Source: a virus. Taken from it: a stretch of DNA of 16,650 bases. Positions 74-13,754 of the stretch are shown in pieces (within the stretch, counting starts at the first letter, position 1; every line of letters begins with the position of its first letter). The stretch lies in the UHGV virus genome UHGV-0207574. The stretch is one strand, 5' to 3'. Both the position numbers and the translations under genes were made by a program. The notes beneath the pieces were generated by a model. That model saw only the letters and a program-made list of their open reading frames with translations. It did not search any database and was not told where the DNA came from.

Positions 74-1009
74 ATGGAACCCCTTCGTGAAATAAGAAAT
101 CGGCTGCTTAACGGCTGGCAATTATCAAAAATGCATACTTTTGAAGTGGCTGCCAGGCATCAGTCCTTCGCCCTGGCGGCAGAGGAATTGTCGCTGAGCC
201 CCAGTGCGGTAAGTCACCGTATCAATCAGCTGGAAGAAGAATTGGGCATTCAGTTGTTTGTTCGTTCCCATCGCAAAGTGGAATTAACGCACGAGGGGAA
301 ACGTGTTTATTGGGCGCTAAAATCGTCGCTGGATACCCTGAACCAGGAAATTCTTGATATCAAAAATCAGGAGTTATCGGGAACGTTAACTCTGTATTCC
401 CGGCCCTCTATCGCCCAATGCTGGTTGGTGCCCGCATTAGGTGACTTTACACGCCGGTATCCGTCTATTTCGCTCACCGTGCTCACTGGTAATGACAACG
501 TCAATCTGCAACGTGCCGGAATCGATTTGGCGATCTACTTTGATGATGCGCCGTCAGCGCAACTCACTCATCACTTTCTGATGGATGAAGAAATCCTGCC
601 AGTATGTAGCCCGGAATACGCTCAAAGACATGCTTTAACCAACACGGTAATTAACCTGTGTCACTGTACGTTGCTCCATGACAGACAGGCATGGAGCAAC
701 GACTCCGGTACGGATGAATGGCATAGTTGGGCGCAACATTATGCGGTTAATTTGCCGACATCTTCTGGAATTGGCTTTGATCGTTCTGATTTAGCTGTTA
801 TTGCCGCGATGAATCATATTGGGGTGGCGATGGGAAGAAAACGCCTGGTACAAAAAAGGCTTGCCAGTGGTGAGCTCGTCGCGCCGTTTGGCGATATGAC
901 GGTGAAATGCCATCAGCATTATTACATCACCACATTACCGGGCAGGCAGTGGCCAAAAATTGAAGCGTTTATTATCTGGCTAAGAGAACAGGTAAAAACC
1001 ACTTCATAA
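74..1009 (+). CDS. dsdC: LysR-family transcriptional activator of D-serine utilisation (DsdC)
   Basis: The ORF track frame 68..1009 begins with GTG; the ATG at 74 follows a GAGG RBS and gives MEPLREIRNRLLNGWQLSKMHTFEVAARHQSFALAAEELSLSPSAVSHRINQLEEELG, an N-terminal LysR HTH followed by a substrate-binding domain. The sequence matches my recollection of E. coli DsdC. Stop TAA at 1007-1009. Confidence 0.88.
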   Translation: MEPLREIRNRLLNGWQLSKMHTFEVAARHQSFALAAEELSLSPSAVSHRINQLEEELGIQLFVRSHRKVELTHEGKRVYWALKSSLDTLNQEILDIKNQELSGTLTLYSRPSIAQCWLVPALGDFTRRYPSISLTVLTGNDNVNLQRAGIDLAIYFDDAPSAQLTHHFLMDEEILPVCSPEYAQRHALTNTVINLCHCTLLHDRQAWSNDSGTDEWHSWAQHYAVNLPTSSGIGFDRSDLAVIAAMNHIGVAMGRKRLVQKRLASGELVAPFGDMTVKCHQHYYITTLPGRQWPKIEAFIIWLREQVKTTS

Positions 1010-1103
1010 TGAATAAAACCACGAGTTCCTGGTGTGCCTTATTCGGCCTGCTAGTTCGAATTTAATTTACGGTTTTTATGTGGTTTTAGGGATAAACACA
1101 AGG

Positions 1104-1119
1104 ATGGTGTCCCCTGCAG
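1104..1119. repeat. att-right core (direct repeat of the argW 3' end)
   Basis: ATGGTGTCCCCTGCAG is identical to 13679-13694; flanking sequence diverges immediately on both sides. Confidence 0.8.
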
Positions 1120-1176
1120 ACATCTACTTGAGGCGGCAGGGGATTGATTGGAATGGTGTTTTTTAGATGTGAAAAA

Positions 1177-1198
1177 TATTTTACCCGCTATTTTACCC
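1177..1198 (+). repeat. Two direct copies of TATTTTACCC (1177-1186, 1189-1198) next to att-right and the torI 3' end; candidate recombination-protein binding sites
   Basis: Seen directly. The same octamer (as GGGTAAAA / TTTTACCC) recurs three times beside the integrase start at the other prophage end (13519-13563). Confidence 0.4.
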
Positions 1199-1393
1199 AT
1201 TGGCGCGGCTTAAGAGCTTATTTTTGAATTCACAATGGTCACGATATAACCATCTTGCTCGCCCGTGGATAACTTTGGCTTTTGGTAGGTCGCCGGACTT
1301 AATCCGGTCGTAGATGAAGGTTTTACCAAAGCCAGTATCGGCCATGATGAATTTCAAATCAACCAGTGAATCAGGCTGTAGTTCGTGTTGCAT
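1193..1393 (-). CDS. torI: Excisionase / recombination directionality factor TorI (also described as an inhibitor of the Tor response regulator)
   Basis: 66-aa ORF MQHELQPDSLVDLKFIMADTGFGKTFIYDRIKSGDLPKAKVIHGRARWLYRDHCEFKNKLLSRANG, a winged-helix Xis/AlpA-like small protein. Matches my recollection of KplE1 TorI. Sits next to att-right. Confidence 0.85.
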   Translation of the reverse strand: MQHELQPDSLVDLKFIMADTGFGKTFIYDRIKSGDLPKAKVIHGRARWLYRDHCEFKNKLLSRANG

Positions 1394-1412
1394 GAGTGCT
1401 ATCTCCGAATAT

Positions 1413-1428
1413 GGAATCGAACCTGCAA
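1413..1428. other. Internal 16-bp fragment identical to the argW variable-loop/T-arm region
   Basis: GGAATCGAACCTGCAA at 1413-1428 is identical to 13694-13709 inside the argW gene. It lies ~20 bp upstream of the torI start codon and ~300 bp inside the prophage. Confidence 0.5.
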
Positions 1429-1517
1429 ATCAGGCAATAAAAAGCCGCATTGATGCAGCAATGGTAGGTCTGGATATCTTGAGAAATGAACAGGCCTCAT
1501 CGAGTGTGAGACTGTGG

Positions 1518-1862
1518 TTAGTCCTTGCGTAGCTCGCTGATTCTTCTGTAAGTCTCTGGTGCTTTGTTTCCGTGTATCTTCATTTCAGACTTCAACAGAG
1601 CAACGAGGGAATCCCATTCGTTGAGGATGCCTTTGAATGCCGGAACGCGCTTTGCAACCTTGTCGAATGAATCTCTGATTTCTGGAATCTGCTCAACAAG
1701 CGCAACGCATCGCCGGAAATCTGCTGCGTCATGGGGAGCGCCGAAGTGATGACCATAGATATTCTTTTTCAGTCCACATGCGATTGAGGCAAGAGTTGCG
1801 CTACTTATGCCAACATCGCCAGTCGATTGCCATTTCAAAACCTTCATAGCCAAATCTGACAT
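1518..1862 (-). CDS. Hypothetical phage protein (114 aa)
   Basis: ORF track frame 1518..1889. The ATG at 1862 has a GGAGA RBS (GGAGACAAGAA ATG) and gives MSDLAMKVLKWQ...; the longer start at 1889 would lie inside a terminator hairpin. I do not recognise a family. Confidence 0.55.
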   Translation of the reverse strand: MSDLAMKVLKWQSTGDVGISSATLASIACGLKKNIYGHHFGAPHDAADFRRCVALVEQIPEIRDSFDKVAKRVPAFKGILNEWDSLVALLKSEMKIHGNKAPETYRRISELRKD

Positions 1863-1872
1863 TTCTTGTCTC

Positions 1873-1898
1873 CAATAAAAAACCGCCATCAGGCGGCT
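1873..1898 (-). terminator. Putative intrinsic terminator on the minus strand (GCCGCC-TGAT-GGCGG followed by TTTTTTATT)
   Basis: Minus-strand sequence CAAGCCGCCTGATGGCGGTTTTTTATTGGAG: a short GC stem, 4-nt loop and T-tract, immediately upstream of the RBS of the 1518..1862 ORF. An A-tract on the other side means it could act in both directions. Confidence 0.4.
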
Positions 1899-1962
1899 TG
1901 GTGTTCTTTCAGTTCTTCAATTCGAATATTGGTTACATTGTTTTCATATATGAATAAATAAA

Positions 1963-2142
1963 TTAGCTTTTTTCGTTGCCTTCGCGTTCTTTATTAATTT
2001 TGACAAACTCGTTTTTACCACGCTCTCCAAATGCGTCTTTAGAGTCGTTGTATCCGCAATCGCAGCACACATAATCACCAGACCATCCACGCATTGTTTT
2101 TTCTTTTGCAATATTTCCAGAACCGCATTTTGGACAAGACAT
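1963..2142 (-). CDS. Small zinc-ribbon protein (CPKC...CCDCG), 59 aa
   Basis: The ATG at 2142 is preceded by GGAGG (GGAGGTAGTGAT ATG) and gives MSCPKCGSGNIAKEKTMRGWSGDYVCCDCGYNDSKDAFGERGKNEF..., with two Cys pairs spaced as in a zinc ribbon. The ORF track start at 2175 is probably an overextension. Confidence 0.55.
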   Translation of the reverse strand: MSCPKCGSGNIAKEKTMRGWSGDYVCCDCGYNDSKDAFGERGKNEFVKINKEREGNEKS

Positions 2143-2238
2143 ATCACTACCTCCAAAGCATGAGTGAGATGACAACGTAACATTGATTGGAGATTAACAA
2201 TAGATTGCTGATGTAAAAGATATGTATAAGCTTCGCTT

Positions 2239-3066
2239 TCAAAGTGGAGGCTCTGGTAGCGGCATCCAGTGAGTTACGTCATCCAAGATATTTCCTGATA
2301 AATACGTGAAAGCTCTATATTTTTTGTAATCAATTGGATTTACAACCCAGTTCCAATATGCTGCCACGATTTCACCTTGACTAAATGCCAGTAACATTTT
2401 GGTGTCTTCCGGCATTCTCTCACTACAGCTTATCCAACCATCTGGAATTACCGGAGAGTTGCCAGATGGCTCGTTCAACTTGTAAGTTTGGCTTACAGGT
2501 TCGGCACCATGAAGCATGGCGTCGCTCCGCTCTATGCCATCCAGCGCGATTCGCAGTGCCTGAATTGTGGTAGAGCTATCGTTTGGGGCTATTCCATATC
2601 GCTCGAATACAGCTAAATGGTTGCGCATAATCTCAGGCGTAAGCTCTTTGTAAGCATAAGCAAGAGGCTCTGATGCATTATCCGGCACAACCGACGCAGG
2701 CGCGGCAGCATAAACAGGAATAACGTCCGCTTCACGAACCTGCATTGCATAGGCAACGATGTTTGCTGCGCTTGGCGTGTTCTTTGCGATCTCAGCGATA
2801 TAAGCAAAACCGCCAACAGACGCCGTTAACGATTTACGCTCCAGTTCATCGAAAAGCGTCAGGCCATCTACTGGCTTTTGCTCCCGGTGCATTCTGGTTA
2901 TTTCTTCGAAAAGGATTTTGTGTGGCCGGCTGTAAAATGAGTCAGGCTTCAGCATCGCCAGAACTTTCTGGACGCGCTCACTGCTGTCATCATCCAGAAG
3001 CAATCCACCAATCACCGCCTGCTCTGCCTCGATGCTATGGGGCGGCGCATAAAAATTATCGGTCAT
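2239..3066 (-). CDS. Chimeric replication-module protein: DnaB-helicase N-terminal domain fused to an Ead/Ea22-like region and a DUF551-like C-terminus; no helicase ATPase core
   Basis: The ATG at 3066 gives MTDNFYAPPHSIEAEQAVIGGLLLDDD ... LTASVGGFAYIAEIAKNTPSAANIVAYAMQVREA, which closely resembles the primase-interacting N-terminal domain of DnaB (PHSIEAEQ and SVGGFAY..KNTPSAANI motifs). The C-terminus (WISCSERMPEDT ... VTHWMPLPEPPL) resembles DUF551. Start overlaps the stop of the upstream O-like gene by 11 nt. Confidence 0.7.
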   Translation of the reverse strand: MTDNFYAPPHSIEAEQAVIGGLLLDDDSSERVQKVLAMLKPDSFYSRPHKILFEEITRMHREQKPVDGLTLFDELERKSLTASVGGFAYIAEIAKNTPSAANIVAYAMQVREADVIPVYAAAPASVVPDNASEPLAYAYKELTPEIMRNHLAVFERYGIAPNDSSTTIQALRIALDGIERSDAMLHGAEPVSQTYKLNEPSGNSPVIPDGWISCSERMPEDTKMLLAFSQGEIVAAYWNWVVNPIDYKKYRAFTYLSGNILDDVTHWMPLPEPPL

Positions 3067-3946
3067 CGTGTTCACCCTCACGAACTTTCAGGTAGGTATT
3101 GTCGTTAAGCAGGAAATCAAATCCCTTTTTGTGCCAGACGGTTCCGCGTTGATGGTTTGGGCGTTCTTCGAACATCCATCGGCAATTTTCGCCTACGTAG
3201 ATCAAATAATTTCTCCAGTCCTGCATCGTGAACCCATGCCCGTCAAGCTGGCGGGTTATCACTCCGGCTTTGCGCCAGAACGTTCGGATCTGGTTTTTAC
3301 GCTTGTCATTCAGTGCGCGGATTCTTGGCGCTTCAGGAAGGATTTCGTGGTAAGCATCGACAACATCCTGACAGCTGACGGAAGGTTTTTTCTTGTCAGA
3401 CTTTTTGTCTGCTGTGGCACTCTCTAATACGTCAGTATTAGAGATATTATTTATATTATTGTTTATGGACAACCGTTGGACAACCGTTGGACAATCTCCG
3501 CTGAGAGCCGCGCCATTACTGGTGTTTGCGTTGGACAACCGTTGGACAACCGTTGGACAATTTTTTGCCTGAAAATCGTCATATTTAACGATTGTAAACA
3601 GGCTAAATTTCTTCCCCATCGAGCAAATATTAAGCATCCCTTTCGACTCAAAAGTCCGTAATAAGCTCCGAACTTTGTTGTCGGGGATGAATGTTTCTCT
3701 GACCAGCGACGGGCGTCCAGTTATCATCTGACCGCGATCAACAGTTATCGGACCGATATCCGTATTGACGACAGTAGATTCGTGATTAGCCTTGAGGATT
3801 AAGTGAAGCCAAAGATGTACTGCCTGAGAGTCCTTATAGAGCCTGCTGTCCATAAACTGGCGGTGTATAGAGACATACCCCATACTGGATGCCTCCTGAT
3901 GTTGTACAGGGTTATGCCTGTAATCAGCTAACTTAACGACGCCCAT
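3056..3946 (-). CDS. Replication initiator, lambda O-like, with the origin iterons inside the gene
   Basis: 296-aa ORF with an N-terminal region resembling the phage O origin-binding domain (HLWLHLILKANHES...). A central linker is encoded by tandem 11-bp repeats, giving the duplicated peptide CPTVVQRLSN. Translationally coupled to the downstream gene. Confidence 0.7.
   Translation of the reverse strand: MGVVKLADYRHNPVQHQEASSMGYVSIHRQFMDSRLYKDSQAVHLWLHLILKANHESTVVNTDIGPITVDRGQMITGRPSLVRETFIPDNKVRSLLRTFESKGMLNICSMGKKFSLFTIVKYDDFQAKNCPTVVQRLSNANTSNGAALSGDCPTVVQRLSINNNINNISNTDVLESATADKKSDKKKPSVSCQDVVDAYHEILPEAPRIRALNDKRKNQIRTFWRKAGVITRQLDGHGFTMQDWRNYLIYVGENCRWMFEERPNHQRGTVWHKKGFDFLLNDNTYLKVREGEHDDR
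3465..3560. repeat. Putative replication origin: six iterons (unit TTGGACAACCG) in two clusters of three (3465-3496, 3531-3560)
   Basis: Direct tandem repeats seen in the sequence, lying inside the O-like gene as lambda ori lies inside O. Next to them in the gene's direction is an AT-rich tract (3440-3464) and a perfect 9-bp inverted repeat CTCTAATAC-GTCA-GTATTAGAG (3422-3443). Confidence 0.7.
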
Positions 3947-4094
3947 GTTTCACTCCTGCTTTGGCTAGTCTGTAAACACCAACAAGGCGCTCTGCGAACG
4001 CCCTGTTATTTGCTGCGGCTACCACTAATCCCTCAGGTGAATCAGGGTGTCGAATCTCTTCTTTTTCCTGGTATTTCTTACGACGTTTTGTCAT
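3933..4094 (-). CDS. Small basic hypothetical protein (53 aa), not in the ORF track (below the length cutoff)
   Basis: The ATG at 4094 is preceded by AGGAG (ACAGGAGTAATT ATG) and gives MTKRRKKYQEKEEIRHPDSPEGLVVAAANNRAFAERLVGVYRLAKAGVKHGRR. Its 3' end overlaps the RBS and start of the O-like gene. Lies between the cII-like and O-like genes. Confidence 0.4.
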   Translation of the reverse strand: MTKRRKKYQEKEEIRHPDSPEGLVVAAANNRAFAERLVGVYRLAKAGVKHGRR

Positions 4095-4128
4095 AATTAC
4101 TCCTGTGGATTGATCCAGTCTTTCTACA

Positions 4129-4407
4129 TCAGGCCTCGAAGAATTCGCCGTTCTTCGGGGCTTTTTCTTTTGTCAGCATTCTGGCTACTTTCTTAGCCAG
4201 TTCCGCCAACTCCTCGTCTTCAACACCCCATTCAAGAACAGCAAGAAGCATTCCCATTTTGGGGATGAAGCTGTCTTTCCATCGCGAAATTTGCGATTCA
4301 TTAATTCCTAACGCGTCAGCAACCTTTCGCTGACCACGTACAGCAATTCGATTCAGGATGTTGCTTGTAATTGCATTCGCTTTCTTGCGAGTACTTGTAA
4401 GTTCCAT
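4129..4407 (-). CDS. CII-like transcriptional regulator (92 aa)
   Basis: The ATG at 4407 with an AGGAAA RBS gives MELTSTRKKANAITSNILNRIAVRGQRKVADALGINESQISRWKDSFIPKMGMLLAVLEWGVEDEELAELAKKVARMLT..., closely resembling lambda CII (GVDKSQISRWKRDWIPKFSMLLAVLEWGV). The ORF track frame extends upstream to 4494. Confidence 0.75.
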   Translation of the reverse strand: MELTSTRKKANAITSNILNRIAVRGQRKVADALGINESQISRWKDSFIPKMGMLLAVLEWGVEDEELAELAKKVARMLTKEKAPKNGEFFEA

Positions 4408-4463
4408 ATGTAAGTATTTCCTTAACAAATAAGAAGTTATGCGCATCAACTTATGCGCGTTGT

Positions 4464-4509
4464 ATTCCCGCATTTCGGCGGGAATGAGGACCATGACTGT
4501 TAAAGAGCG
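4464..4509 (-). promoter_or_regulatory. nutR-like antitermination site: boxA CGCTCTTTAACA (4498-4509) and a boxB-like hairpin (4464-4485)
   Basis: Minus strand reads CGCTCTTTAACA, a 12-nt spacer, then ATTCCCGC-CGAAAT-GCGGGAAT (8-bp stem, GAAA-containing loop). It sits between the cro fragment and the cII-like gene, as nutR does in lambda. Confidence 0.5.
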
Positions 4510-4515
4510 GTGTTA

Positions 4516-4614
4516 CTATTTGTTTTTCTTGTTGCTTGGGAAAGGACGAACTTCCTCTCCAATCACACTGCCATCAGGCTTTACCGTAAACGACGCTATA
4601 CAGCCAGATGGCAA
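4516..4614 (-). pseudogene. cro gene, 3' fragment only
   Basis: Minus-strand frame ending at stop 4516-4518 translates to ...CIASFTVKPDGSVIGEEVRPFPSNKKNK, matching the lambda Cro C-terminus (INADGSVYAEEVKPFPSNKKTTA). There is no N-terminal part and no in-frame start. Confidence 0.65.
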
Positions 4615-4730
4615 TCAACTGCGCAGTGCATGAGAAAAAGCCCGCTCTGATGTTCAGCCTTGAAATGCCAGGTGATCAGATACTGGAAAAACTGGTAGGG
4701 CAGAAGTCTGGTGTTAACCCGAATATTTTT
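4611..4730 (+). pseudogene. Fragment of a DnaB-family helicase core (region just after Walker A), on the plus strand
   Basis: The first ~40 codons of the ORF track frame 4608..5093 read AINCAVHEKKPALMFSLEMPGDQILEKLVGQKSGVNPNIF, resembling E. coli DnaB (AMNLCENAAMLQDKPVLIFSLEMPSEQIMMRSL). The rest of that frame looks like non-coding alt-frame sequence. Confidence 0.4.
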
Positions 4731-4759
4731 TACCTTCCGGCGACAAATGACGCTGATGA

Positions 4760-5281
4760 CGGCTACTCGGGGAAAACATCCTTTCCTGCGATACGGAGAA
4801 GAGTATCCGGGAGCGATTTTCTGTTTACCAGGTGGCGGGGCAGCGTGCCGGAAACGACGATGATTTCGGTGAGGCCACCACCACCGCGCTGCGGGCCCGC
4901 ACAGAGGACGCATTTATTGCCCGTTACCGTCCGATGTATATCAGGCAGACAGGGCAGGCTACGGGGGCAGGCTGTATTGCCCGTGCGGACTTTGAAGCCC
5001 GGCAACGGGCGGCGCGGACGGATGAAACCACCTATGTGGTGCAGGGCTGGCGACAGGGTAACGGTACGCTGTGGCAGCCCAACCAGCGGGTGATTGTCTT
5101 CGATCCGGTCTGTGGTTTCGACAATACCGAACTGCTTGTCTCGGAAGTCACGTTTACTCAGGACCAGAATGGCACCCTGACGGAAATCCGTGTCGGCCCA
5201 CCTGATGCTTATCTGCCTGAACCCGAAGCCCCCGGCGCGCGGAAAAAGAAAAAAGCCAGAGTACAGGAGGACCCGTTCTGA
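4760..5281 (+). pseudogene. 5'-truncated baseplate-hub/tail gene (Mu gp44 / P2 gpD-like), C-terminal part
   Basis: The frame is open from the stop at 4757-4759 with only a GTG at 4832 as a possible start. Its stop overlaps the start of the downstream gpV-like gene (TGATG), and position and composition match the upstream member of a Mu-type baseplate cluster. Family assignment is by position, not recognised sequence. Confidence 0.45.
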
Positions 5282-5829
5282 TGAGGACGATTGAAGCCAT
5301 GCAGCGACAACTCCTCGGCCTGATTGGGCGGGCCGTGGTGAAAAGCATCAGTGCCGCCACGAAATGTCAGACCGTGGATGTGTCCCTGATTGCCGGTGAA
5401 CCCAAAGCCGGGATTGAACATCTTGAACCCTACGGTTTTACCGCAAGGGCAAACAGCGGTGCGGAAGCGGTGGTGTTGTTTCCGGATGGCGACCGTTCTC
5501 ATGCGGTGGTTGTTACGGTGTCGGACCGGCGTTACCGCCTGAAAGGGCTGCAGACGGGTGAGGTGGCTGTCTATGACGATCAGGGGCAGTCCGTGACGCT
5601 GACCCGGGAGGGGATCGTGGTGGACGGTGCAGGTAAAACGATCACGTTTCGCAATGCGCCCAGAGCACGTTTTGAAATGGACCTGGAAGTGACCGGACAG
5701 GTGAAAGACCTGTGCGACTCCGGCGGCACCACCATGTCAGCGATGCGGCTTGCCTATAACGGGCATCGTCACAGAGAGAACGGTCAGGGCAGTAACACCG
5801 ACAAACCTGATAAAGCGATGGAGGCATGA
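5281..5829 (+). CDS. Baseplate assembly/spike protein, gpV-like (Mu gp45-like)
   Basis: 182-aa ORF, translationally coupled on both sides, GC-rich, with a C-terminal DSGGTT motif that I recall from P2 gpV-type proteins. Confidence 0.65.
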   Translation: MRTIEAMQRQLLGLIGRAVVKSISAATKCQTVDVSLIAGEPKAGIEHLEPYGFTARANSGAEAVVLFPDGDRSHAVVVTVSDRRYRLKGLQTGEVAVYDDQGQSVTLTREGIVVDGAGKTITFRNAPRARFEMDLEVTGQVKDLCDSGGTTMSAMRLAYNGHRHRENGQGSNTDKPDKAMEA

Positions 5830-6254
5830 TGGTACTGTGGCTGACGGTGAACGGTAAACGCACCTGCGCCAGCGCACCGCTGGATCCGCTGACCCGCGCC
5901 GTGGTGATTTCCCTGTTTACCTGGCGGCGGGCGGAGCCTGATGACAACGCCGACGTCCCGATGGGATGGTGGGGGGATACCTGGCCTGCGGTACAGAATG
6001 ACCGTTACGGCTCCCGGCTGTGGCTGCTTCAGCGCAGCAAACTGACCAATCAGCTGGTGCAGACGGTAAGGGGGTATATCCGCGAATGTCTGCAATGGAT
6101 GATTGATGACGGCGTGGTGTCCCGTATTGATCTGGATATCCGCCGCACCGGGATTAATGAACTGGGTAACAGTATCACTCTCTGGCGTCGTGACGGACCG
6201 GTAATGATTTCTTTTGATGATCTGTGGAGTGCGATAACGCATGGCGGACAGTGA
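5826..6254 (+). CDS. Baseplate protein, phage GP46 family (gpW-like)
   Basis: 142-aa ORF with start overlapping the upstream stop (ATGA). Size and position between the V-like and J-like genes are typical of a Mu-type baseplate cluster. Confidence 0.6.
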   Translation: MMVLWLTVNGKRTCASAPLDPLTRAVVISLFTWRRAEPDDNADVPMGWWGDTWPAVQNDRYGSRLWLLQRSKLTNQLVQTVRGYIRECLQWMIDDGVVSRIDLDIRRTGINELGNSITLWRRDGPVMISFDDLWSAITHGGQ

Positions 6255-7299
6255 ATTTCAGCGCCCGACGCTGGCAGAAAATATCAGTATGCTCCGTAAC
6301 GATTTATTCGCCAGGCTGGACGTCAGCGACACGCTCCGGCGCATGGATGAAGACGTGCGGGCAAAGGTGTATGCGGCGGCGCTGCATACGGTTTACGGGT
6401 ACATCGATTATCTGGCAATGAACATGCTGCCTGACCTGTGCGATGAGTCCTGGCTGGCGCGACATGCTGCGATGAAACGGTGTCCGCGCAAGGGGGCCAC
6501 GGCTGCCAGCGGGTATATGCGCTGGGAAGGTGTCAGCGATGGCCTGAAGGTGACCGCCGGGAGTGTTATTCAGCGCGATGACCTGGTTCAGTACACGGCA
6601 ACTGCCGATGCAACCAGCTCCGGTGGTGTCCTGCGCGTGCCGATCGCCTGCTCAAGTTCAGGCGCGGTCGGTAACGCTGACGACGGTACGTCATTAATCC
6701 TGGTCACGCCGGTGAATGGTCTGCCGTCTTCCGGTGTGGCTGACACCCTGACAGGCGGATTTGATACTGAAGATCTGGAAACGTGGCGCGCCCGCATCAT
6801 TGAGCGGTATTACTGGACGCCGCAGGGCGGGGCTGACGTGGACTATGTCGTCTGGGCTAAAGAAGTGCCCGGCATTACCCGCGCATGGACATACCGACAC
6901 TGGATGGGAACGGGGACTGTCGGTGTGATGATTGCCAGCAGTGACCTGATTAACCCCATTCCGGAAGAATCAACGGAAACGGCAGCAAGACAACATATCG
7001 GGCCACTGGCCCCGGTGGCAGGCTCTGATTTGTATGTATTCAGGCCGGTGGCGCACAAAGTGGATTTTCATATCCGCGTGACGCCGGACACACCGGAAAT
7101 ACGGGCTGCCATTACCGCAGAGTTGCGTTCATTCCTGCTGCGTGATGGTTATCCGCAGGGAGAGCTGAAGGTATCGCGTATCAGTGAAGCGATTTCCGGT
7201 GCGAACGGGGAATACAGCCATCAGTTGCTTGCTCCGGCGGACAATATCTCCATTGCAAAAAATGAACTGGCGGTTCTGGGGACGATTTCATGGACGTGA
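6241..7299 (+). CDS. Baseplate J-like protein (Mu gp47-like)
   Basis: 352-aa ORF in the conserved V-W-J-I order, overlapping its neighbours. Confidence 0.65.
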
Positions 7300-7874
7300 C
7301 AAACGATGATTACATCCGTCTGTTGTCGGCACTGCTGCCGCCCGGTCCGGCGTGGTCAGCCAGCGATCCGGCGATTGCCGGTGCGGCACCGTCATTAACT
7401 CGTGTTCATCAGCGTGCGGATGCCCTGATGCGGGAGCTGGATCCGCGCACCACCACCGAACTGATAAATCGCTGGGAGCGTCTGTGCGGCCTGCCGGATG
7501 AATGTATTCCCGCAGGGACACAGACCCTTCGCCAGCGTCAGCAACGGCTGGATGCGAAGGTTAACCTGGCGGGTGGCATCAACGAGGATTTTTATCTTGC
7601 ACAGCTTGCTGCCCTGGGCAGACCAGATGCCACCATCACGCGATACGACAAAAGCACGTTCACCTGCTCATCGGCCTGTACTGACGCTGTGAATGCGCCG
7701 GAATGGCGGTATTACTGGCAGGTCAACATGCCAGCCGCCGCCAACACCACCTGGATGACATGTGGCGATCCCTGTGATTCCGCACTGCGTATCTGGGGTG
7801 ACACCGTTGTCGAGTGTGTGCTTAACAAACTCTGCCCGTCGCATACCTACGTAATTTTTAAATATCCGGAGTAA
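7290..7874 (+). CDS. Tail protein, Mu gp48 / YmfQ-like (P2 gpI position)
   Basis: 194-aa ORF directly downstream of the J-like gene and upstream of the tail-fibre gene. Confidence 0.6.
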
Positions 7875-7877
7875 TCC

Positions 7878-8519
7878 ATGCATCGTATAGACACGAAAAC
7901 CGCGCAGAAGGATAAGTTCGGCGCGGGTAAGAACGGTTTTACCCGTGGTAACCCCCAGACCGGCACGCCTGCCACCGATCTGGATGATGACTACTTTGAC
8001 ATGTTGCAGGAGGAGCTTTGCAGCGTTGTGGAGGCCTCCGGTGCCAGCCTGGAGAAGGGGCGGCATGACCAGCTGCTTACCGCGCTTCGTGCGCTGCTGT
8101 TAAGCCGCAAGAATCCGTTTGGCGATATCAAATTGGACGGCACGGTGCAAAAGGCTCTCGAAAACCTTGGTTTGGGAGAAGCGGCTAAAAGAAATGTAGG
8201 GACAGGGGCGAATCAGATACCTGATATGGGTAGCTTCACGCTTTCTGTTTCAGGTACTGGATATCAAAAATTGCCATCCGGTTTAATTATTCAATGGGGG
8301 CCAATTGATGTTCCGCTGACGTCTCAGGACACAGTAACCTATTTTCCGATTGCATTTCCGAATAGATGTCTGCGGGTATTTGCGACTCAGGATTACACTC
8401 CCGGCAGTGCAAATGTTGGCTATATAGCTTGTGCCGGTTATAACCAGGACCCGGTGAAATTTATTTCCAGAGCAGGCGTACCCGGTCTCGGTGCTTCATT
8501 TTTCGCATTAGGGTGTTAA
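7878..8519 (+). CDS. Tail fibre protein (short; constant N-terminal part plus variable C-terminal part)
   Basis: GGAG RBS. The N-terminus [74 protein letters not shown] is the conserved tail-fibre N-terminal region of Mu/P2-type fibres. GC content drops sharply after ~8180. Confidence 0.7.
8155..8180. promoter_or_regulatory. Candidate relic serine-invertase crossover site (gix/hix-like) inside the tail-fibre gene
   Basis: CTCTCGAAAACC-TT-GGTTTGGGAGAA is an imperfect 26-bp dyad with the AAACC-NN-GGTTT core typical of Gin/Hin/Pin sites as I recall them. It lies at the constant/variable junction of the fibre and coincides with the GC drop. Confidence 0.35.
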
Positions 8520-8545
8520 TTTCTTTTAACTTTATGGAGTGAAAA

Positions 8546-8986
8546 ATGAATCACATATATTCCGCGACTACAAACTCTTTCTATCCCTTGGAGATGAAAG
8601 AGGATTACACGCAAGCTGGCTCATGGCCAGATGATGCTGTTGAAGTTGATGAGCAAGTGTATATTGAGTTTTCCGGATTACCGCCGAAAGGAAAAATCCG
8701 TATCGCTGGAGAAAATGGTTTTCCTGCATGGTCTGAAATTCCACCACCAACACATGAGGAACAGATTGCTGCAGCCGAACTGAAAAAGCAGCAATTGATT
8801 AATCAGGCCAACGATTATATGAACAGTAAACAATGGGCTGGTAAAGCGGCTATTGGTCGTCTGAAAGGTGAGGAACTGGCGCAATATAATTTGTGGCTGG
8901 ATTATCTGGACGCACTGGAGCTGGTCGATACTTCCAGTGCGCCAGATATTGAATGGCCTACTCCTCCGGCAGTTCAGGCCAGATGA
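8546..8986 (+). CDS. Tail fibre assembly protein (Tfa/U-like)
   Basis: 146-aa ORF with a GGAG RBS, ending ...SSAPDIEWPTPPAVQAR, a typical Tfa C-terminus. Immediately downstream of the tail-fibre gene. Confidence 0.7.
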   Translation: MNHIYSATTNSFYPLEMKEDYTQAGSWPDDAVEVDEQVYIEFSGLPPKGKIRIAGENGFPAWSEIPPPTHEEQIAAAELKKQQLINQANDYMNSKQWAGKAAIGRLKGEELAQYNLWLDYLDALELVDTSSAPDIEWPTPPAVQAR

Positions 8987-9260
8987 CATCCGGCGCGGTG
9001 CTGGTATCTGTTGCCGTCACCGCGTCAATGTAATCCAGCACAGTGTTAAGTCGGGAGGTCTCTGCCTGCATCAGCTTCCGCCCAGCCCGTAATTTCAGTT
9101 GAATCAGACTAATGGAAGCCATTGCAGTATCAATCAGTGACTGACGCTGTGCTTCTGCCGCGTCTACTGCGGCGTGATGCTGTGCCTCAGTATCGGTCAC
9201 CCATTTCTCACCATCCCATTTATCGTATGGCGTTAATGGGGCGATAGTCGCGGGACGCAT
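8958..9260 (-). pseudogene. Second tail fibre assembly gene (C-terminal half only), convergent with and overlapping the first
   Basis: Minus-strand frame MRPATIAPLTPYDKWDGEKWVTD...TSTAPDVIWPELPEE has a Tfa-like C-terminus. It is blocked upstream by a stop at 9318-9320, so at most ~120 codons remain. Overlaps the 3' end of the plus-strand tfa by ~29 bp. Confidence 0.5.
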
Positions 9261-9284
9261 ACAAACATAACCCCTGGATGTTAT

Positions 9285-9566
9285 GTGTCTATCGAGAATC
9301 AAAGTGGAAGTCCTTATGTTAAGTATAAGACAGGAATCACTTATAACGATAATCAGTTAGTATATGTATCTATCACTGTTGATGATAATATCAGCACTTG
9401 GTTCTGGAGGGGGTTTGTTGTGGGCAATGATGCATTTAAGTTATCGTCTGCAGATAGAGGAGATATTACAATAAACAACGAATCAGGGCATTTGATAGTC
9501 AATACCGCAATTCTATCAGGAGATATAGTCACTCTAAGAGGAGGAGAAATTAGGTTGGTATTATAG
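9285..9566 (+). other. Orphan ORF (93 codons, GTG start, no internal Met), possibly a 3' gene fragment
   Basis: VSIENQSGSPYVKYKTGITYNDNQ...DIVTLRGGEIRLVL is rich in N/T/S/V/I, like the beta-rich tip of a fibre. There is no ATG and only a weak RBS. It lies in low-GC DNA between the tfa remnant and gtrC. Confidence 0.25.
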
Positions 9567-9570
9567 CTTG

Positions 9571-9592
9571 TGCGCGCCATGATTGGCGCGCA
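9571..9592. repeat. Perfect GC-rich palindrome TGCGCGCCA-TGAT-TGGCGCGCA between the convergent stop codons of the orphan ORF and gtrC
   Basis: 9-bp perfect inverted repeat with a 4-nt loop and no adjacent T-tract on either strand. Could be a terminator-like hairpin or a protein-binding palindrome. Confidence 0.45.
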
Positions 9593-9600
9593 ATTTAAAC

Positions 9601-10932
9601 TTAGTGCTTTACATCGCTATTGTCTTGATTTCTTTGAATTATTTTATAAATTAAAAAAACGACTGTTATGTATAAGCAAAGGTCGAACGAAAAATACATT
9701 CCAAATAAATGCTTGCTTAAATCTCTATATCCTTCCCCGAAAAATGACACATAAAATTGAGATATTCCAAAAAGAGATACTACAAATAAAGATGCCTTTA
9801 TTTTATTATTTCTAATAAAAATAGAAGCAATAAAAAATAATAACAATGATATAAATCTAATGTTTTTAAATATATTGTCTTTTATGTTAGTAATAGTCGT
9901 TAGTATGTTTGATTCTCCATATATTACGTGTAGTTTTTTATATACATGGAAATAATTTTCTTTATACTGAGACATCACACCATCATCAAATGGAAGTTTG
10001 AAGATGGTGCTTGGTTTGCTAACCAATAAAAAGAGTGCATTCGAAAACGTTTCATCTTTATGAGATTCGAAACATTCCGTTCCAACTTCTGTTGGGGTTG
10101 CGCCAAATGATATGTCGAATTTATTACCCCAAGCATCTAACCCAACACACTTATCATCAACATACGATGGCATTTTATACCCGTTGTTTTTCATATAAAG
10201 ATAACTACCGAAGTATGTTGCATGGTACTTATTTAATTCAACAACACCTTTTGAATAAGATATTGCAAATATTGACGCAAGCAAGCACACCACGCATATT
10301 ACAGATTTAATAATTAGTTTGTGTCTATCAAAAAAAATATAATATGAATACACTATTAGTGGGGTTAATATAAATTGATTTTTAGCAGTAGATATTATTA
10401 GCAACGAAAAAAATAGCAAAAGCATAGATTTATTGTTTTTGCATGTTAATGAATACACCAAAAATGGAAGGAAAATTATAACTATTTGCTCTTGATAGAA
10501 TGATGCAAACATTGACAGTGTTGATGAAGAACACATAAGAAAAGCTAAAATAAAGAATGTAAATAAAGTTACATACCTTTCTGTTTTTATATATGAAGTA
10601 AATATCGCATATAATGAATAAATATATATTACTTTTAGAAATAACGATAACACCCTAGCATCAAGATATTCAGTAAAAATGCTAATAAACAGGACGTATG
10701 TATACAAAATATAACTATATGAACTTATATACTCATAGCTATCAATTGAATCAATATGACCTTTCAATTTATACAATAAAGGTAAGTCATATGTAAATGC
10801 TGGTATGTCTTCAATTAATGGCTTAATGGCTCTTCCGAAATCAGATGTATTTAACATCATTATGTTTTTAGATAAGGCGCAAATAATCAAAACAAAAGAT
10901 ATATACAATGATACTTTTATTGCTTTATTCAT
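9601..10932 (-). CDS. gtrS: Serotype-specific O-antigen glucosyltransferase, GtrC-type polytopic membrane protein (K-12 equivalent yfdI/gtrS)
   Basis: 443-aa, very AT-rich, highly hydrophobic multi-pass ORF. Third gene of a gtrA-gtrB-gtrC operon and translationally coupled to gtrB. The family is defined by position and topology rather than sequence conservation. Confidence 0.7.
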
Positions 10933-11849
10933 TTTTTGACTCTCTTGATGATGTATTTCGGGCGTTTTTTGGTTTCAATGTATGTGCGTCCAATATATTC
11001 ACCTAATACTCCTATTCCAATCATCTGAATTCCACCTAAAAACAGTATTGAAACAAGTAGTGAAGGATATCCCCTAACAGCATTTCCAAATATGATAGTA
11101 TCTAAAATCATCCACGCCCCATAAATAAATGCTACACTGGCTACCACTAACCCTATGTATGTCCAGATGCGAAGAGGGAATGTGGAAAAGCTTGTAATAC
11201 CCTCAAGTGCTAAATTCCAAAGTTTCCATCCATTAAATTTTGTATCTCCAGCAATTCTTTCCGCTCGCACGTATTCAACAATATCTGTCTTTCCTCCTAC
11301 CCAGCTCAGAATACCTTTCATGAAAAGGTTTCGTTCTGGCATAAGTTTAATATTTTCGACAACATCACGGCTCATCAGCCTGAAATCACCAACATTCTCT
11401 TCAATTTTAGGATTGCTTATTTTATTGTGGAGCTTATAGAACCACTCAGCCGTTTTTCGCTTCAGGCGTCCATCAGTTGAGCGGTCAGATCTTTTAGCAA
11501 GAACCATATCAGCACCTGCTTGCCATTTTTCAATAAGATGAGGAATAACCTCAATCGGGTCTTGCAGGTCAACATCAATTGGGATTATCGCATCCCCGGT
11601 TGCATGGTCTAACCCTGCAAACAATGCTGGTTCTTTACCAAAGTTGCGTGTAAATGACAGCGGAACAACTAGAGGATCTGAAACAGCCAGAGCATTAATG
11701 ATTGACTCCGTAGCGTCTTTGCTGCCGTCATTTATGAAAACGATTTCCACTTCATATGACTTCAATTCTTCGAATTCACGTACCGTTTTATAAAAAATTG
11801 GTATCGCTTCTTCTTCATTGAAGACAGGAACTACAAGAGATATCTTCAT
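10929..11849 (-). CDS. gtrB: Bactoprenol glucosyltransferase GtrB (GT2 family)
   Basis: 306-aa [23 protein letters not shown]...INDGSKDAT...DVDLQDP: a GT2 catalytic domain followed by C-terminal transmembrane helices, as in GtrB/YfdH. Confidence 0.85.
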
Positions 11850-12208
11850 TTCGCATCCCTAAAGACAATGAACTTTGAATAGACGAAACCGCACACCAGG
11901 CTGATGGCGGAGAAGGTGACAAGAGTTATCATCGGGGGAAGTGCGCATCTATCAGCAGCCCATCCAACAGTAGCACTCAGTGTCCCCATGAACCCAACAT
12001 ATAGCATGTAGCGCATCGTTGTAGTCGATGCCTTGAATGTGAATTTTGCATTCGCGAAGAAGCTAAAGCTCACAGCCACAACGAAACCTGCGAAGTTTGC
12101 AAGAGCTTGGTTTGTATGCGCGACATAGATACAAACACCAAAAACCACCCAGTGTATAAGGGTGTTCAGCACACCAATAGAGGTGTACTTTGCAAATAGC
12201 TTTAACAT
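11846..12208 (-). CDS. gtrA: GtrA family flippase for undecaprenyl-phosphate glucose
   Basis: 120-aa small four-helix membrane protein, first gene of the operon, overlapping gtrB by 4 nt. Confidence 0.8.
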
Positions 12209-12360
12209 TTCTTCTATCAGCTAATAATCAAAGGAATGAAGTCTATCATCCAAGTCTTAATCGATCGATACTTGCTGTGGTTGATGAGACAAAACTTATA
12301 CACACAAAGCTTTGCACTGGATTGCAAGACTTTGTGCTATTCGATAGTTGTTAAGGTCGC

Positions 12361-13518
12361 TCACTCCACCTTCTCATCAAGCCAGTCCGCCCACCATTGC
12401 ATCATTTCTCTGCGTTTATCGAGATACTGAGCATGGTTGTAAATCCCACGCACAGATCCGCCGTTTGCATGTGCCAGTTGCACTTCAATAGCGTCAGCAG
12501 GCCATTCGTGCTCGTTCATAATCGTGCTGAATTCATGCCTGAATCCGTGACCGCTTTCCAGACCCTCATAGCCGATTTGTTTGATCACAAGCAGTACCGC
12601 GTTCTCGCAGATTGGCTTCTTCTTATCGTTGCGCCCGGCAAAAACAAACTCTGAGACTGGTTTGGTGATGGAGCTTAGCGTAGTGAGAAGTTCAACTACC
12701 TGGTCTGACATAGGAACCACATGAATTTTGCGTCCTTTCATCACACTGGCGTCGATGGTGATAATCCTATTTTCAAAATCGACGTTCTTCCATAGCATGG
12801 AACGAAGCTCTTTCGTTCTTAGGGCTGTGTAGCGTAAAACTTTGGTCGCAATGAGCGATACGATACTTCCTGAAAATGTTGCCAGTGCTTTGTTGAATGC
12901 CGGGATCTGGTCTGCAGGAAGAAACGGGAAGTTCTTCTTGCGGTATCCCTTCATGGCGTCAGCAAGGTCAGGTGCCGGGTTATATTTAGCCCTTCCGGTG
13001 ACAATAGCGTAACGGAAAACCTCGCCGCATCTTCTGCGTGCTTTGTTGGCTCGTTCCATTGCACCGCGATCTTCAAACCTGCGGATTACTTCCAGCAGTT
13101 GCATCGGCTCAATATCCTGAATTTCAAGGCCGCCAATGATAGGTAAAATGTCGTCGTCAAACATTTTGGCAAGTTCAGTTGCATACCCTACTGACCATAC
13201 TTGCTTCTTGTGCTCGTACCATTCCTTGTAAATCGCACTAAAGGAATTGTTGTTAGACGAAGCCTTTTTCGCCTTTACAGGATCGATGCCAACCGAGATG
13301 TCTTTCCTCGCAGTCCATGCTTTATCCCTTGCCTCCTGCAAAGTCATAAGCGGATATTTTCCGACGGTCAGGATTTTCTCCTTACCGTCAATCTTGTAGC
13401 GAAGCTGCCATACCTTTTTCCCTGACACAGGGACATAAAGGTACAGGCCATTACCATCGAGAAGGCGGTATGGTTTTTCTTTCGGCTTTGCTGCTTCAAT
13501 CTGCTTAACGGTGAGCAT
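12361..13518 (-). CDS. intS: Tyrosine-family site-specific integrase (IntS-like)
   Basis: From the ATG at 13518 (MLTVKQIEAAKPKEKPYRLLDGNGLYLYV...) the protein has a P4-type integrase N-terminus and a C-terminal catalytic domain (...HGFRHEFSTIMNEH...GIYNHAQYL). The ORF track starts at an upstream GTG at 13554. Adjacent to the tRNA. Confidence 0.85.
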   Translation of the reverse strand: MLTVKQIEAAKPKEKPYRLLDGNGLYLYVPVSGKKVWQLRYKIDGKEKILTVGKYPLMTLQEARDKAWTARKDISVGIDPVKAKKASSNNNSFSAIYKEWYEHKKQVWSVGYATELAKMFDDDILPIIGGLEIQDIEPMQLLEVIRRFEDRGAMERANKARRRCGEVFRYAIVTGRAKYNPAPDLADAMKGYRKKNFPFLPADQIPAFNKALATFSGSIVSLIATKVLRYTALRTKELRSMLWKNVDFENRIITIDASVMKGRKIHVVPMSDQVVELLTTLSSITKPVSEFVFAGRNDKKKPICENAVLLVIKQIGYEGLESGHGFRHEFSTIMNEHEWPADAIEVQLAHANGGSVRGIYNHAQYLDKRREMMQWWADWLDEKVE

Positions 13519-13563
13519 GGGTAAAAATCCGGTGGGTAAAATTATTTTATCCACTTTTTACCC
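13519..13563. repeat. Octamer repeats GGGTAAAA (13519-13526, 13534-13541) and inverted TTTTTACCC (13555-13563) at the integrase 5' end; candidate arm-type or RDF binding sites
   Basis: Seen directly. The same motif occurs twice next to att-right (1177-1198). Confidence 0.4.
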
Positions 13564-13678
13564 GTCATGGAGTGCGGCTGTCAACGATCTGAAGCGAACC
13601 ATGACGAACTGTAAATCTACGGAATGCTTGATATTCAGGGGATTTTGCGGACTGGTACGGATGGGAGCGAACTGATAA

Positions 13679-13694
13679 ATGGTGTCCCCTGCAG
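13679..13694. repeat. att-left core overlapping the 3' end of argW
   Basis: ATGGTGTCCCCTGCAG, identical to 1104-1119. Confidence 0.8.
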
Positions 13695-13754
13695 GAATCG
13701 AACCTGCAATTAGCCCTTAGGAGGGGCTCGTTATATCCATTTAACTAAGAGGAC
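13680..13754 (-). tRNA. argW: tRNA-Arg (anticodon CCU)
   Basis: Minus-strand 75-nt sequence GTCCTCTTAGTTAAATGGATATAACGAGCCCCTCCTAAGGGCTAATTGCAGGTTCGATTCCTGCAGGGGACACCA. It has the acceptor stem, an anticodon loop CU-CCU-AA, a GGTTCGATTCC T-arm and an encoded CCA end. Confidence 0.9.

Follow-up and report, generated by a model that had tools for sequence, protein, structure and literature searches.

An in-frame fusion of a phage helicase head to a DUF551-family tail at argW as a probable scar of prophage decay, and a recurrent breakpoint in the P helicase gene

The reading frame at 2239-3066, which joins the N-terminal domain of a DnaB-like phage helicase to the C-terminal part of a DUF551-family protein, is very probably a non-adaptive, in-frame fusion pseudogene that arose by illegitimate recombination during the decay of a CPS-53/KplE1-type lambdoid prophage at argW. 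It lies on the minus strand of the window, by which we mean the whole stretch of 16,650 nucleotides that was analysed. As a gene, the chimera is an ordinary decay product of low interest. It does illustrate that a decay scar can pass for an engineered adaptor when one relies on automatic annotation ('Replicative helicase', 'DUF551 protein') and on the reading of domains. The only points worth following up are a recurrent breakpoint in the P helicase gene, GTGAA/ACCG (here and below the slash marks the break), and the coincidence of a second break with an intein insertion site. The features of the window on which the argument is built are the following.

1104-1119, no strand: attR core, a 16-nt repeat of the argW 3' end
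1193-1393, minus strand: torI, excisionase/RDF of KplE1-type prophages (ORF list and prophage comparison)
1518-1889, minus strand: hypothetical phage gene (PHROG 1229)
1963-2175, minus strand: Eag-like zinc-ribbon gene (PHROG 2945; named 'Eag protein' in matching prophages)
2239-3066, minus strand: chimeric ORF, P residues 1-112 (P') joined to the C-terminal 163 aa of a DUF551-family protein (ORF list, Pfam and parent alignments)
2239-2732, minus strand: 3' 494 nt of a DUF551-family gene of the exo-xis region, comprising the central region and the DUF551 domain (amino-acid and DNA matches)
2731-2732, no strand: junction J1, with a 2-nt microhomology, TT on the plus strand and AA on the coding strand (three-way DNA comparisons)
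2731-3066, minus strand: 5' 336 nt of the P gene for an HK620/HK022-type DnaB-like helicase, globular N-terminal domain only (amino-acid and nucleotide identity)
3056-3946, minus strand: O-like replication initiator, intact, 296 aa (PHROG 345 'replication initiation O-like', E=6e-84)
3455-3572, no strand: origin-like iterons inside O, two clusters of 11-nt repeats (TGGACAACCGT; repeat search)
3933-4094, minus strand: hkaW/gp53-like small gene, 53 aa (PHROG 1331; HK620 annotation)
4129-4407, minus strand: cII, called at 92 aa, with a longer ORF reaching 4494 (Pfam Phage_CII, E=2.4e-42; metagenome-contig gene call)
4516-4589, minus strand: the final 74 nt of cro; its 5' part is lost, as are pR/OR and all that lay beyond them (HK620 comparison)
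4588-4589, no strand: junction J2, cro interior (minus strand) to P nt 668 (plus strand), AA microhomology (DNA comparison)
4588-4765, plus strand: orphan helicase fragment of 178 nt, P nt 668-845, aa 224-282 (99.4% nucleotide identity to HK620 P)
4764-4765, no strand: junction J3, P nt 845 to the interior of a Mu-type baseplate gene, TA microhomology (DNA comparison)
4764-5281, plus strand: remaining 3' part of a baseplate assembly gene like Mu gpP; the Mu-type genes gp45, gp46, gp47 and gp48 come next
12361-13554, minus strand: intS
13679-13694, no strand: attL core within argW, a tRNA-Arg (CCU) gene at 13680-13754

The ORF encodes 275 aa from an ATG at 3066, and an in-frame GTG at 3081 is a possible alternative start. 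In Pfam, the DnaB N-terminal domain (PF00772) matched residues 8-112 across profile positions 2-103 of 103 (E=1.8e-31; 108.7 bits, cut-off 23), which bears out the DnaB similarity that the initial annotation had proposed for the first ~110 residues. DUF551 (PF04448) matched residues 210-274 (E=7.2e-21; 75.3 bits, cut-off 22). PHROGs assigned residues 1-112 to the DnaB-like helicase family and the remainder to two families of unknown function, PHROG 6847 and PHROG 60, and residues 113-209 correspond to the central region of a DUF551-family protein. The annotated lack of a Walker A/B ATPase core was confirmed as well: Pfam gave no match to DnaB_C or any other ATPase family in the ORF, and tblastn found no core in six frames. 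NCBIfam helicase models matched within the first ~115 residues at about a quarter of their cut-off scores, for instance 125.9 bits for TIGR03600 phage_DnaB against a cut-off of 498.65. The tail had been described as Ead-like and DUF551-like; the second half of that description stands and the first does not, as neither the chimera nor six close DUF551 relatives gave an Ead/Ea22 profile match (IPR025153) at E<=0.1 in Pfam or NCBIfam. The 'ead/Ea22-like' wording is present only in some database names of relatives. Searches of Pfam, PHROGs and NCBIfam for helicase-loader families (lambda P, DnaC/IstB and DnaD types) returned none for the chimera; the DnaD-like matches fall in the adjacent O gene. 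Structure prediction from an alignment of 27 sequences gave a mean pLDDT of 37 and a pTM of 0.30, values too low for the model to be informative.

Both halves could be traced to intact parents. Residues 1-112 show 100% amino-acid identity to P of HK620, mEpX2, HK022-like and Stx phages, every match ending at residue 112, and the corresponding DNA is 98.2% identical to HK620. The chimera shares with these ~478-aa helicases residues 1-112, the 11-nt overlap with O and the position in the replication module, but it lacks residues 113-478, so that the RecA-type ATPase is missing altogether, as are the linker helix and most of the helical hairpin. Residues 113-275 match, at ~98% identity, the C-terminal 163 aa of DUF551 proteins of 234-237 aa encoded in lambdoid exo-xis regions (e.g. 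P0003, a match over ~60% of the query), and DNA matches of this part to many E. coli prophages stop at 2732. A complete DUF551 domain and the downstream neighbours Eag and torI are common to the chimera and these parents; in the chimera, however, the helicase head stands in place of the parent's first ~73 residues, and the gene lies downstream of O whereas the parent gene is part of the pL operon. DUF551 proteins of the exo-xis region are related to the C-terminal domain of Ea22 V2 and to YfdS of CPS-53. DUF551 has been described as a 'portable' domain of unknown function that is also present in Stx-phage Ea22 variant 2 and CPS-53 YfdS (PMC10834534; PMC4776307).

Three-way DNA comparison placed the breakpoint to the nucleotide, at 2731/2732. 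Homology to P runs from 3066 to 2731 and homology to the DUF551 gene from 2732 downwards, with two bases common to both. On the P side the break is at GTTCGTGAA/ACCGCA; on the coding strand the chimera reads ...CAGGTTCGTGAA/GCGGACGTT... and the DUF551 parent ...AAAGAGCAA/GCGGACGTT.... Intact HK620 P compared by tblastn with the six frames of the window matched only through aa 1-112 (3066-2731) and, on the opposite strand, aa 224-284 (4590-4772). A simple frameshift in an intact helicase gene was rejected because these two segments are all of P that survives and no frame downstream holds the helicase core; the initial annotation had named a core in a shifted frame as the finding that would speak for a frameshift. 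An artefact of assembly or sequencing would require a chimeric contig. Metagenome contigs can be chimeric, and one IMG/VR contig (L088) ended in Illumina adapter; yet J1, J2 and J3 all recur on several contigs, which come from different ENA samples and are 99.93-100% identical over 4-8 kb, and both flanks run into normal E. coli chromosome. Artefact and frameshift together are thus an extremely improbable account of the ORF.

The window is the dsdC-argW interval of an E. coli chromosome, with dsdC at 68-1009 and with yfdC and mlaA beyond argW. The two copies of the 16-nt att core enclose a prophage remnant of 12.6 kb, which is of CPS-53/KplE1 type by its argW site, its duplicated att core, and the presence of intS and torI at opposite ends. 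The ends of the remnant are 98.4% and 99.75% identical to E. coli K-12; one of them carries torI, the other intS, gtrABS and tail-fibre remnants. The integration site, the 16-nt att core, intS, gtr, the tail-fibre remnants and torI are all common to the remnant and K-12 CPS-53/KplE1 (PMC2951348, PMC3509656). The two differ in the central 6.4 kb, where K-12 has yfdM-yfdT whereas the remnant has Mu-type baseplate genes and an inverted cro'-cII-O-P' block. Int, gtr, some tail genes and torI are thus kept; no repressor, pR, pL, Q, lysis or head genes were found in the 12.6-kb remnant. Different deletion derivatives occupy the argW locus in K-12, strain 1409, CT02 and BA22372. The argW site is a much-studied prophage graveyard, to which the window adds one more deletion/inversion variant.

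The block cro'-cII-hkaW-O-P' (P nt 1-336), 1.86 kb at 2731-4589, is inverted within the remnant. In less decayed or intact prophages at argW (BA22372 and CT02) the DUF551 gene is part of the leftward pL/exo-xis operon, which terminates with torI, and cro-cII-O-P are transcribed in the opposite direction, from the pR operon. Because the parent genes lie on opposite strands, J1 is an inversion junction, and a simple deletion was rejected as the origin of the fusion in favour of an inversion with deletions. The initial proposal of a deletion-generated chimera was therefore essentially right, although the event was no simple deletion: an inversion junction was followed by further deletions. Within the block, the O gene is 99% identical at the nucleotide level to O genes that adjoin full-length helicases in other E. 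coli, and the iterons sit at the position of the annotated rep_origin in HK620 O. The start of the chimera overlaps the stop of O by 11 nt, exactly as P overlaps O in HK620. As both this overlap and the ribosome site are those of the native HK620 O-P pair, the 'translational coupling' to O noted earlier is inherited, not evolved.

Upstream, the block is cut within cro. Positions 4085-4589 correspond to 3982-3478 of the HK620 locus, in which cro occupies 3357-3551 and pR 3299-3334. A consensus scan of 1000-5400 found no promoter upstream of cro', and its 4 sites compare with ~5.5 expected by chance. With pR/OR and the 5' part of cro deleted and P truncated, the block does not amount to a functional lambdoid replication module. 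J2 is a head-to-head, inversion-type join, beyond which the orphan P fragment runs in the orientation opposite to P' in the block; it starts just past the Walker A lysine and gives a weak DnaB_C match in Pfam. The baseplate gene entered at J3 has its parent in E. coli 1409. All three junctions carry a 2-nt microhomology (J1 TT/AA, J2 AA, J3 TA).

The simplest history that fits these junctions has three events, the number and order of which we infer. In the ancestral layout, a pL operon ending in ead, the DUF551 gene, eag and torI would have occupied one strand, and cro-cII-O-P-nin and so on the other. J1 would have arisen by an inversion whose breakpoints lay within the DUF551 gene and behind P nt 336 and were joined through the 2-nt microhomology; that the reading frame survived would be a matter of chance (1 in 3). 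J2 may then have come from the loss of everything between mid-cro and P nt 668, including the inverted immunity region, the pL operon and P nt 337-667, and J3 from a further deletion that began at P nt 846, took out the late genes and ended in the baseplate gene. The outcome would be a reading frame that starts as the helicase gene's 5' third, keeps the native ribosome site and the overlap with O, and continues into the last 163 codons of the DUF551 gene. The product, if made, would be a monomeric globular DnaB head with a DUF551 tail, devoid of the ATPase, the hexamerisation elements and the hairpin, and it probably has no function.

The fusion was seen on 6-7 metagenome contigs, 99.93-100% identical to the window and in unchanged chromosomal context. 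No match covering >=80% of the ORF was found in 5,426 complete E. coli genomes, whereas one half or the other was present in 1,299. The protein, which is named 'MAG TPA: Replicative helicase [Caudoviricetes sp.]' in nr, forms a single-member cluster in a collection of 5.8 billion clusters. HMMER found no protein matching both halves among 1.84 billion representatives (best score 245 bits, against 619 for the self-match), and of the best 120 clusters, the query's singleton was the only one with both Pfam domains. A diverged two-domain DnaB_N-DUF551 family was accordingly not found in either the best 120 clusters or the 1.84 billion representatives. Short 'DnaB-N only' proteins were also rejected as a family, since those in the representative library are frameshifted or partial genes. 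As judged from these collections, the fusion is a one-off without a conserved family.

The initial annotation had raised the alternative of a helicase-less adaptor acting on DnaG or DnaB, by recruitment or by sequestration. In such a reading the DnaB head would be kept because it is useful, titrating O or the primase of superinfecting lambdoid phages or poisoning mixed hexamers, and the DUF551 tail would be either incidental or a second interaction module. The kept frame, an ORF intact in all copies and the native Shine-Dalgarno sequence and O overlap count against the scar reading and in favour of this one; such an ORF, with such signals, could be translated if it were transcribed at all. O, with which P naturally partners, is likewise intact, and stress and replication phenotypes have been reported for other CPS-53 genes, among them the one that encodes the DUF551 protein YfdS (PMC4776307; PMC10834534).

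What is left of the helicase makes this role unlikely. In E. coli DnaB, residues 119-148 and 152-169 form the hairpin helices, and the interaction with primase depends on residues 135 and 141 (PMC4705694). An H. pylori DnaB N-terminal construct with the hairpin-forming linker bound the primase C-terminal domain well and a shorter one poorly, and the globular N-terminal domain of E. coli DnaB alone is monomeric in solution (PMC2761005). By alignment, the last helicase residue of the chimera is equivalent to E128 of E. coli DnaB. The chimera thus keeps the globular head and ~10 residues of the first hairpin helix; homology ends before residues 135 and 141, and the collar/primase surface formed by the helical hairpin and linker helix is absent. 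Given that only the globular head, a monomer and poor primase binder in isolation, is kept, that pR is deleted and no promoter site lies upstream of cro', and that the fusion is a singleton, the adaptor proposal finds no support, and we regard an adaptor or decoy as quite improbable. The preferred reading remains a scar of prophage decay.

The P-side break at J1 is not unique to the window. The helicase gene is broken at the same nucleotide, GTGAA/ACCG (nt 336), in at least eight independent rearrangements, J1 included, in which the partners are the DUF551 gene, a portal gene, a P63C gene, a tailspike gene, P nt 1157 and three others seen at the protein level only. Besides J1 these are as follows.

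E. coli CT02: P nt 336 to the interior of a portal gene, in a prophage at argW (DNA level)
E. coli MRE162: P nt 336 to a P63C-domain gene, in a prophage at sbcB-dacD with another integrase (DNA level)
IMG/VR contig L009: P nt 336 to a tailspike gene (DNA level)
P0123: internal, out-of-frame deletion of 820 nt, from P nt 337 to nt 1156 (protein level)
P0122, P0128 and P0136: truncation at residue 112, followed by unrelated tails (protein level)

The truncated P genes of CT02, MRE162 and L009 resemble the chimera in that the cut follows nt 336 and an AA microhomology links P to an unrelated phage gene. They are same-strand deletions, mostly out of frame or soon terminated and annotated as pseudogenes, whereas the chimera is an inversion junction that stays in frame for 163 codons. 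The five partner parents that can be read all have AA just before the junction and an imperfect ACCG after it (GCAA/GCGG, GTAA/TCCG, CTAA/GGCG, GAAA/GCAG and GGAA/GCGG). The 9-mer GTGAAACCG occurs in P in two copies only, at nt 332 and nt 1277, and contig L128 has a break at the matching internal position of the second copy. Truncations are rare overall: a 200-nt span is intact in 373 of 379 matching records in complete genomes, and at least 120 native copies stand against 1 broken copy in IMG/VR. Among the truncations in this sample of about 500 copies, the nt-336 position dominates. A pattern scan for altered nt-336 junctions yielded one real case in IMG/VR (L009), only a chance match in a mutS gene in JGI metagenomes (L010), and none in GTDB genomes; we found no description of the hotspot in the literature.

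The recurrence has itself been counted against the scar reading, as it could in principle reflect selection for a 112-aa N-terminal product and not a mechanical hotspot. That at least eight independent events kept exactly residues 1-112, each followed by an unrelated tail of 1-163 aa, would be consistent with the head domain being under selection. Single-nucleotide precision, however, cannot arise from selection at the level of a protein domain, because six AA dinucleotides lie within +/-30 nt of the break, and truncated copies make up only ~1-2% of carriers of the P helicase. In a weaker variant of the nuclease proposal considered below, the recurrent 112-residue head would itself be retained as an anti-phage decoy.

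The second break in P, at nt 668, coincides with a known insertion point. In other alleles a 341-aa intein occupies the P-loop of the P helicase (GK/T, the DnaB 'b' insertion point), and the orphan fragment of the window begins exactly at this site. The intein was found at five IMG/VR loci and in 18 of 5,426 E. coli genomes, in the latter at >=99.4% identity; it has a LAGLIDADG_3 match above threshold, a weak Hint-domain match, a C-terminal HN and a +1 Thr. These observations admit a refinement of the scar reading, to which we give less than an even chance: P may be cut by a sequence-specific nuclease both at GTGAA/ACCG (nt 336) and where the P-loop intein homes (nt 668), with microhomology then guiding the mis-joining of the ends. 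Candidates are a homing endonuclease, for instance the intein's own LAGLIDADG enzyme, and an undescribed nuclease of phage competition or defence. This refines the decay-scar explanation and is compatible with it.

Several lines of evidence point towards such breakage, namely the eight independent partners at nt 336, the AA and imperfect ACCG of the five readable parents, the break of the only other 9-mer copy at the same position, the start of the second P fragment where the LAGLIDADG intein sits in other alleles, and the occurrence of the hotspot in prophages with different integrases and integration sites. Others point away from it. The nt-336 and nt-668 sites agree at only ~10 of 20 positions, which is weak for a LAGLIDADG off-target. 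The intein is absent from CT02 and MRE162, neither of which is among the 18 carriers. Three insertion points have been described for DnaB inteins, all in the ATPase domain and none in the N-terminal region (PMC4760082). There is no motif at J3 or on the non-P sides of the junctions. On balance, from sequence comparison, a site-specific nuclease is a plausible origin of the P-side break at J2 and a possible one at J1. Only tentatively, and with some doubt, would we extend this to the claim that the helicase-side breakpoints of the scar are non-random, HK620/HK022-type helicase genes being knocked out by site-specific nucleases and repaired through microhomology into fusions. If true, this would provide a concrete, testable route for the disarming of prophages and for new mosaic joints.

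Other origins of the hotspot were considered. Mediation by an insertion sequence was rejected, the tail of P0123 being P sequence out of frame and not an IS end, and no IS being present at any junction. A hairpin at the hotspot is small and not significant (-5.5 kcal/mol, z = -1.9), which also speaks against site-specific breakage. GTTCGTGA was tried as a general motif; its two copies in the window are compatible with chance. P also shares TGCAGGTTCG with the T-arm of argW, in register with the boundary of the att core, as a pseudo-att site of IntS might; the likeness is probably due to chance, because two hotspot events lie in prophages at sbcB-dacD, which use a different integrase.

The helicase gene P, which encodes the DnaB-like helicase of HK620/HK022-type phages and supplies the N-terminal 112 residues of the chimeric ORF in the window, was cut after exactly nt 336, between GTTCGTGAA and ACCGCA, in at least eight independent rearrangements. 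An AA microhomology joins P nt 336 to unrelated sequences in these rearrangements, and two different chromosomal sites are represented among the prophages carrying the break. Positions of the break are as follows:

Window 2731-2739: P nt 328-336
L006 (comparison locus) ~4005: P nt-336 break
L011 (E. coli MRE162) 3600: P nt-336 break
L009 (IMG/VR contig) 4265: P nt-336 break
L014 (comparison locus) 2501: P nt-336 break

MRE162 has in addition lost nearly all of its O gene: the deletion runs from ~nt 72 of O to a point 27 nt upstream of P (L011 3166-3265). cII and a small ORF survive alongside the 336-nt P stub.

The helicase hotspot (window 2735-2744) has a 10-mer, TGCAGGTTCG, in common with the T-arm of argW (13700-13725), and this match is in register with the att core's left edge. 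The sharing is probably a coincidence, because prophages with another integrase also show hotspot events. Comparison of window 1104-13694 with four comparison loci (L007, L008, L017, and L002) revealed a different deletion derivative in the argW-dsdC slot of each strain examined (K-12, 1409, CT02, BA22372, and the window). The derivatives had nothing in common beyond the int/gtr end and the torI end.

P holds only two copies of the 9-mer GTGAAACCG, which lie in the same frame and 945 nt apart (5332 and 6277 in the HK620 locus, L001). One IMG/VR contig (L128 ~1289, corresponding to P nt 1281) carries a break in the second copy, at the internal position where the first copy is cut. A second, small cluster of independent P truncation points was located directly past the Walker B-like ILVDY(L) motif:

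L024/L083 (comparison loci): P nt 1020
L100 (comparison locus): P nt 1019
P0133 (protein): ~nt 1023-1026 of P

The IMG/VR contig L088 only simulates a truncated helicase gene: at ~5243-5272, its end, the gene runs into Illumina adapter sequence (AGATCGGAAGAGCACACGTCTGAACTCCAG), which makes this a data artefact.

The window also contains an orphan piece of the helicase gene, oriented opposite to the 5' P fragment and flanked by a cro remnant on one side and a truncated Mu-type baseplate gene on the other:

Window 4588-4765, plus strand: 178-nt P fragment (P nt 668-845)

Its first base is the exact point at which other alleles carry an intein. This 341-aa intein, with a LAGLIDADG endonuclease, interrupts the HK620-type P helicase within its Walker A motif, between GK and T. 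It was found in five IMG/VR loci (L064 5259-6281; also L043, L048, L078, and L131) as well as in 18 E. coli complete genomes, and all copies found share at least 99.4% identity. The intein begins with Ala, ends with HN, and looks class-3-like. In RefSeq, the intein stretch is unannotated and the helicase is divided into pieces.

Two further features were identified in the O gene and the cII neighbourhood:

Window 3455-3572, inside O: two clusters of the 11-nt repeat TGGACAACCGT, each of three overlapping copies, spaced 66 nt
Window 4131-4163, plus strand: strong terminator-like hairpin, 14 pairs and a T run

For this O type, the repeats presumably represent the origin iterons. Window O ceases to match HK620 O at this repeat region; its N-terminal half is therefore a different specificity module. 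The hairpin is antisense to the cII 3' end; the oop terminator of lambda occupies the matching position.
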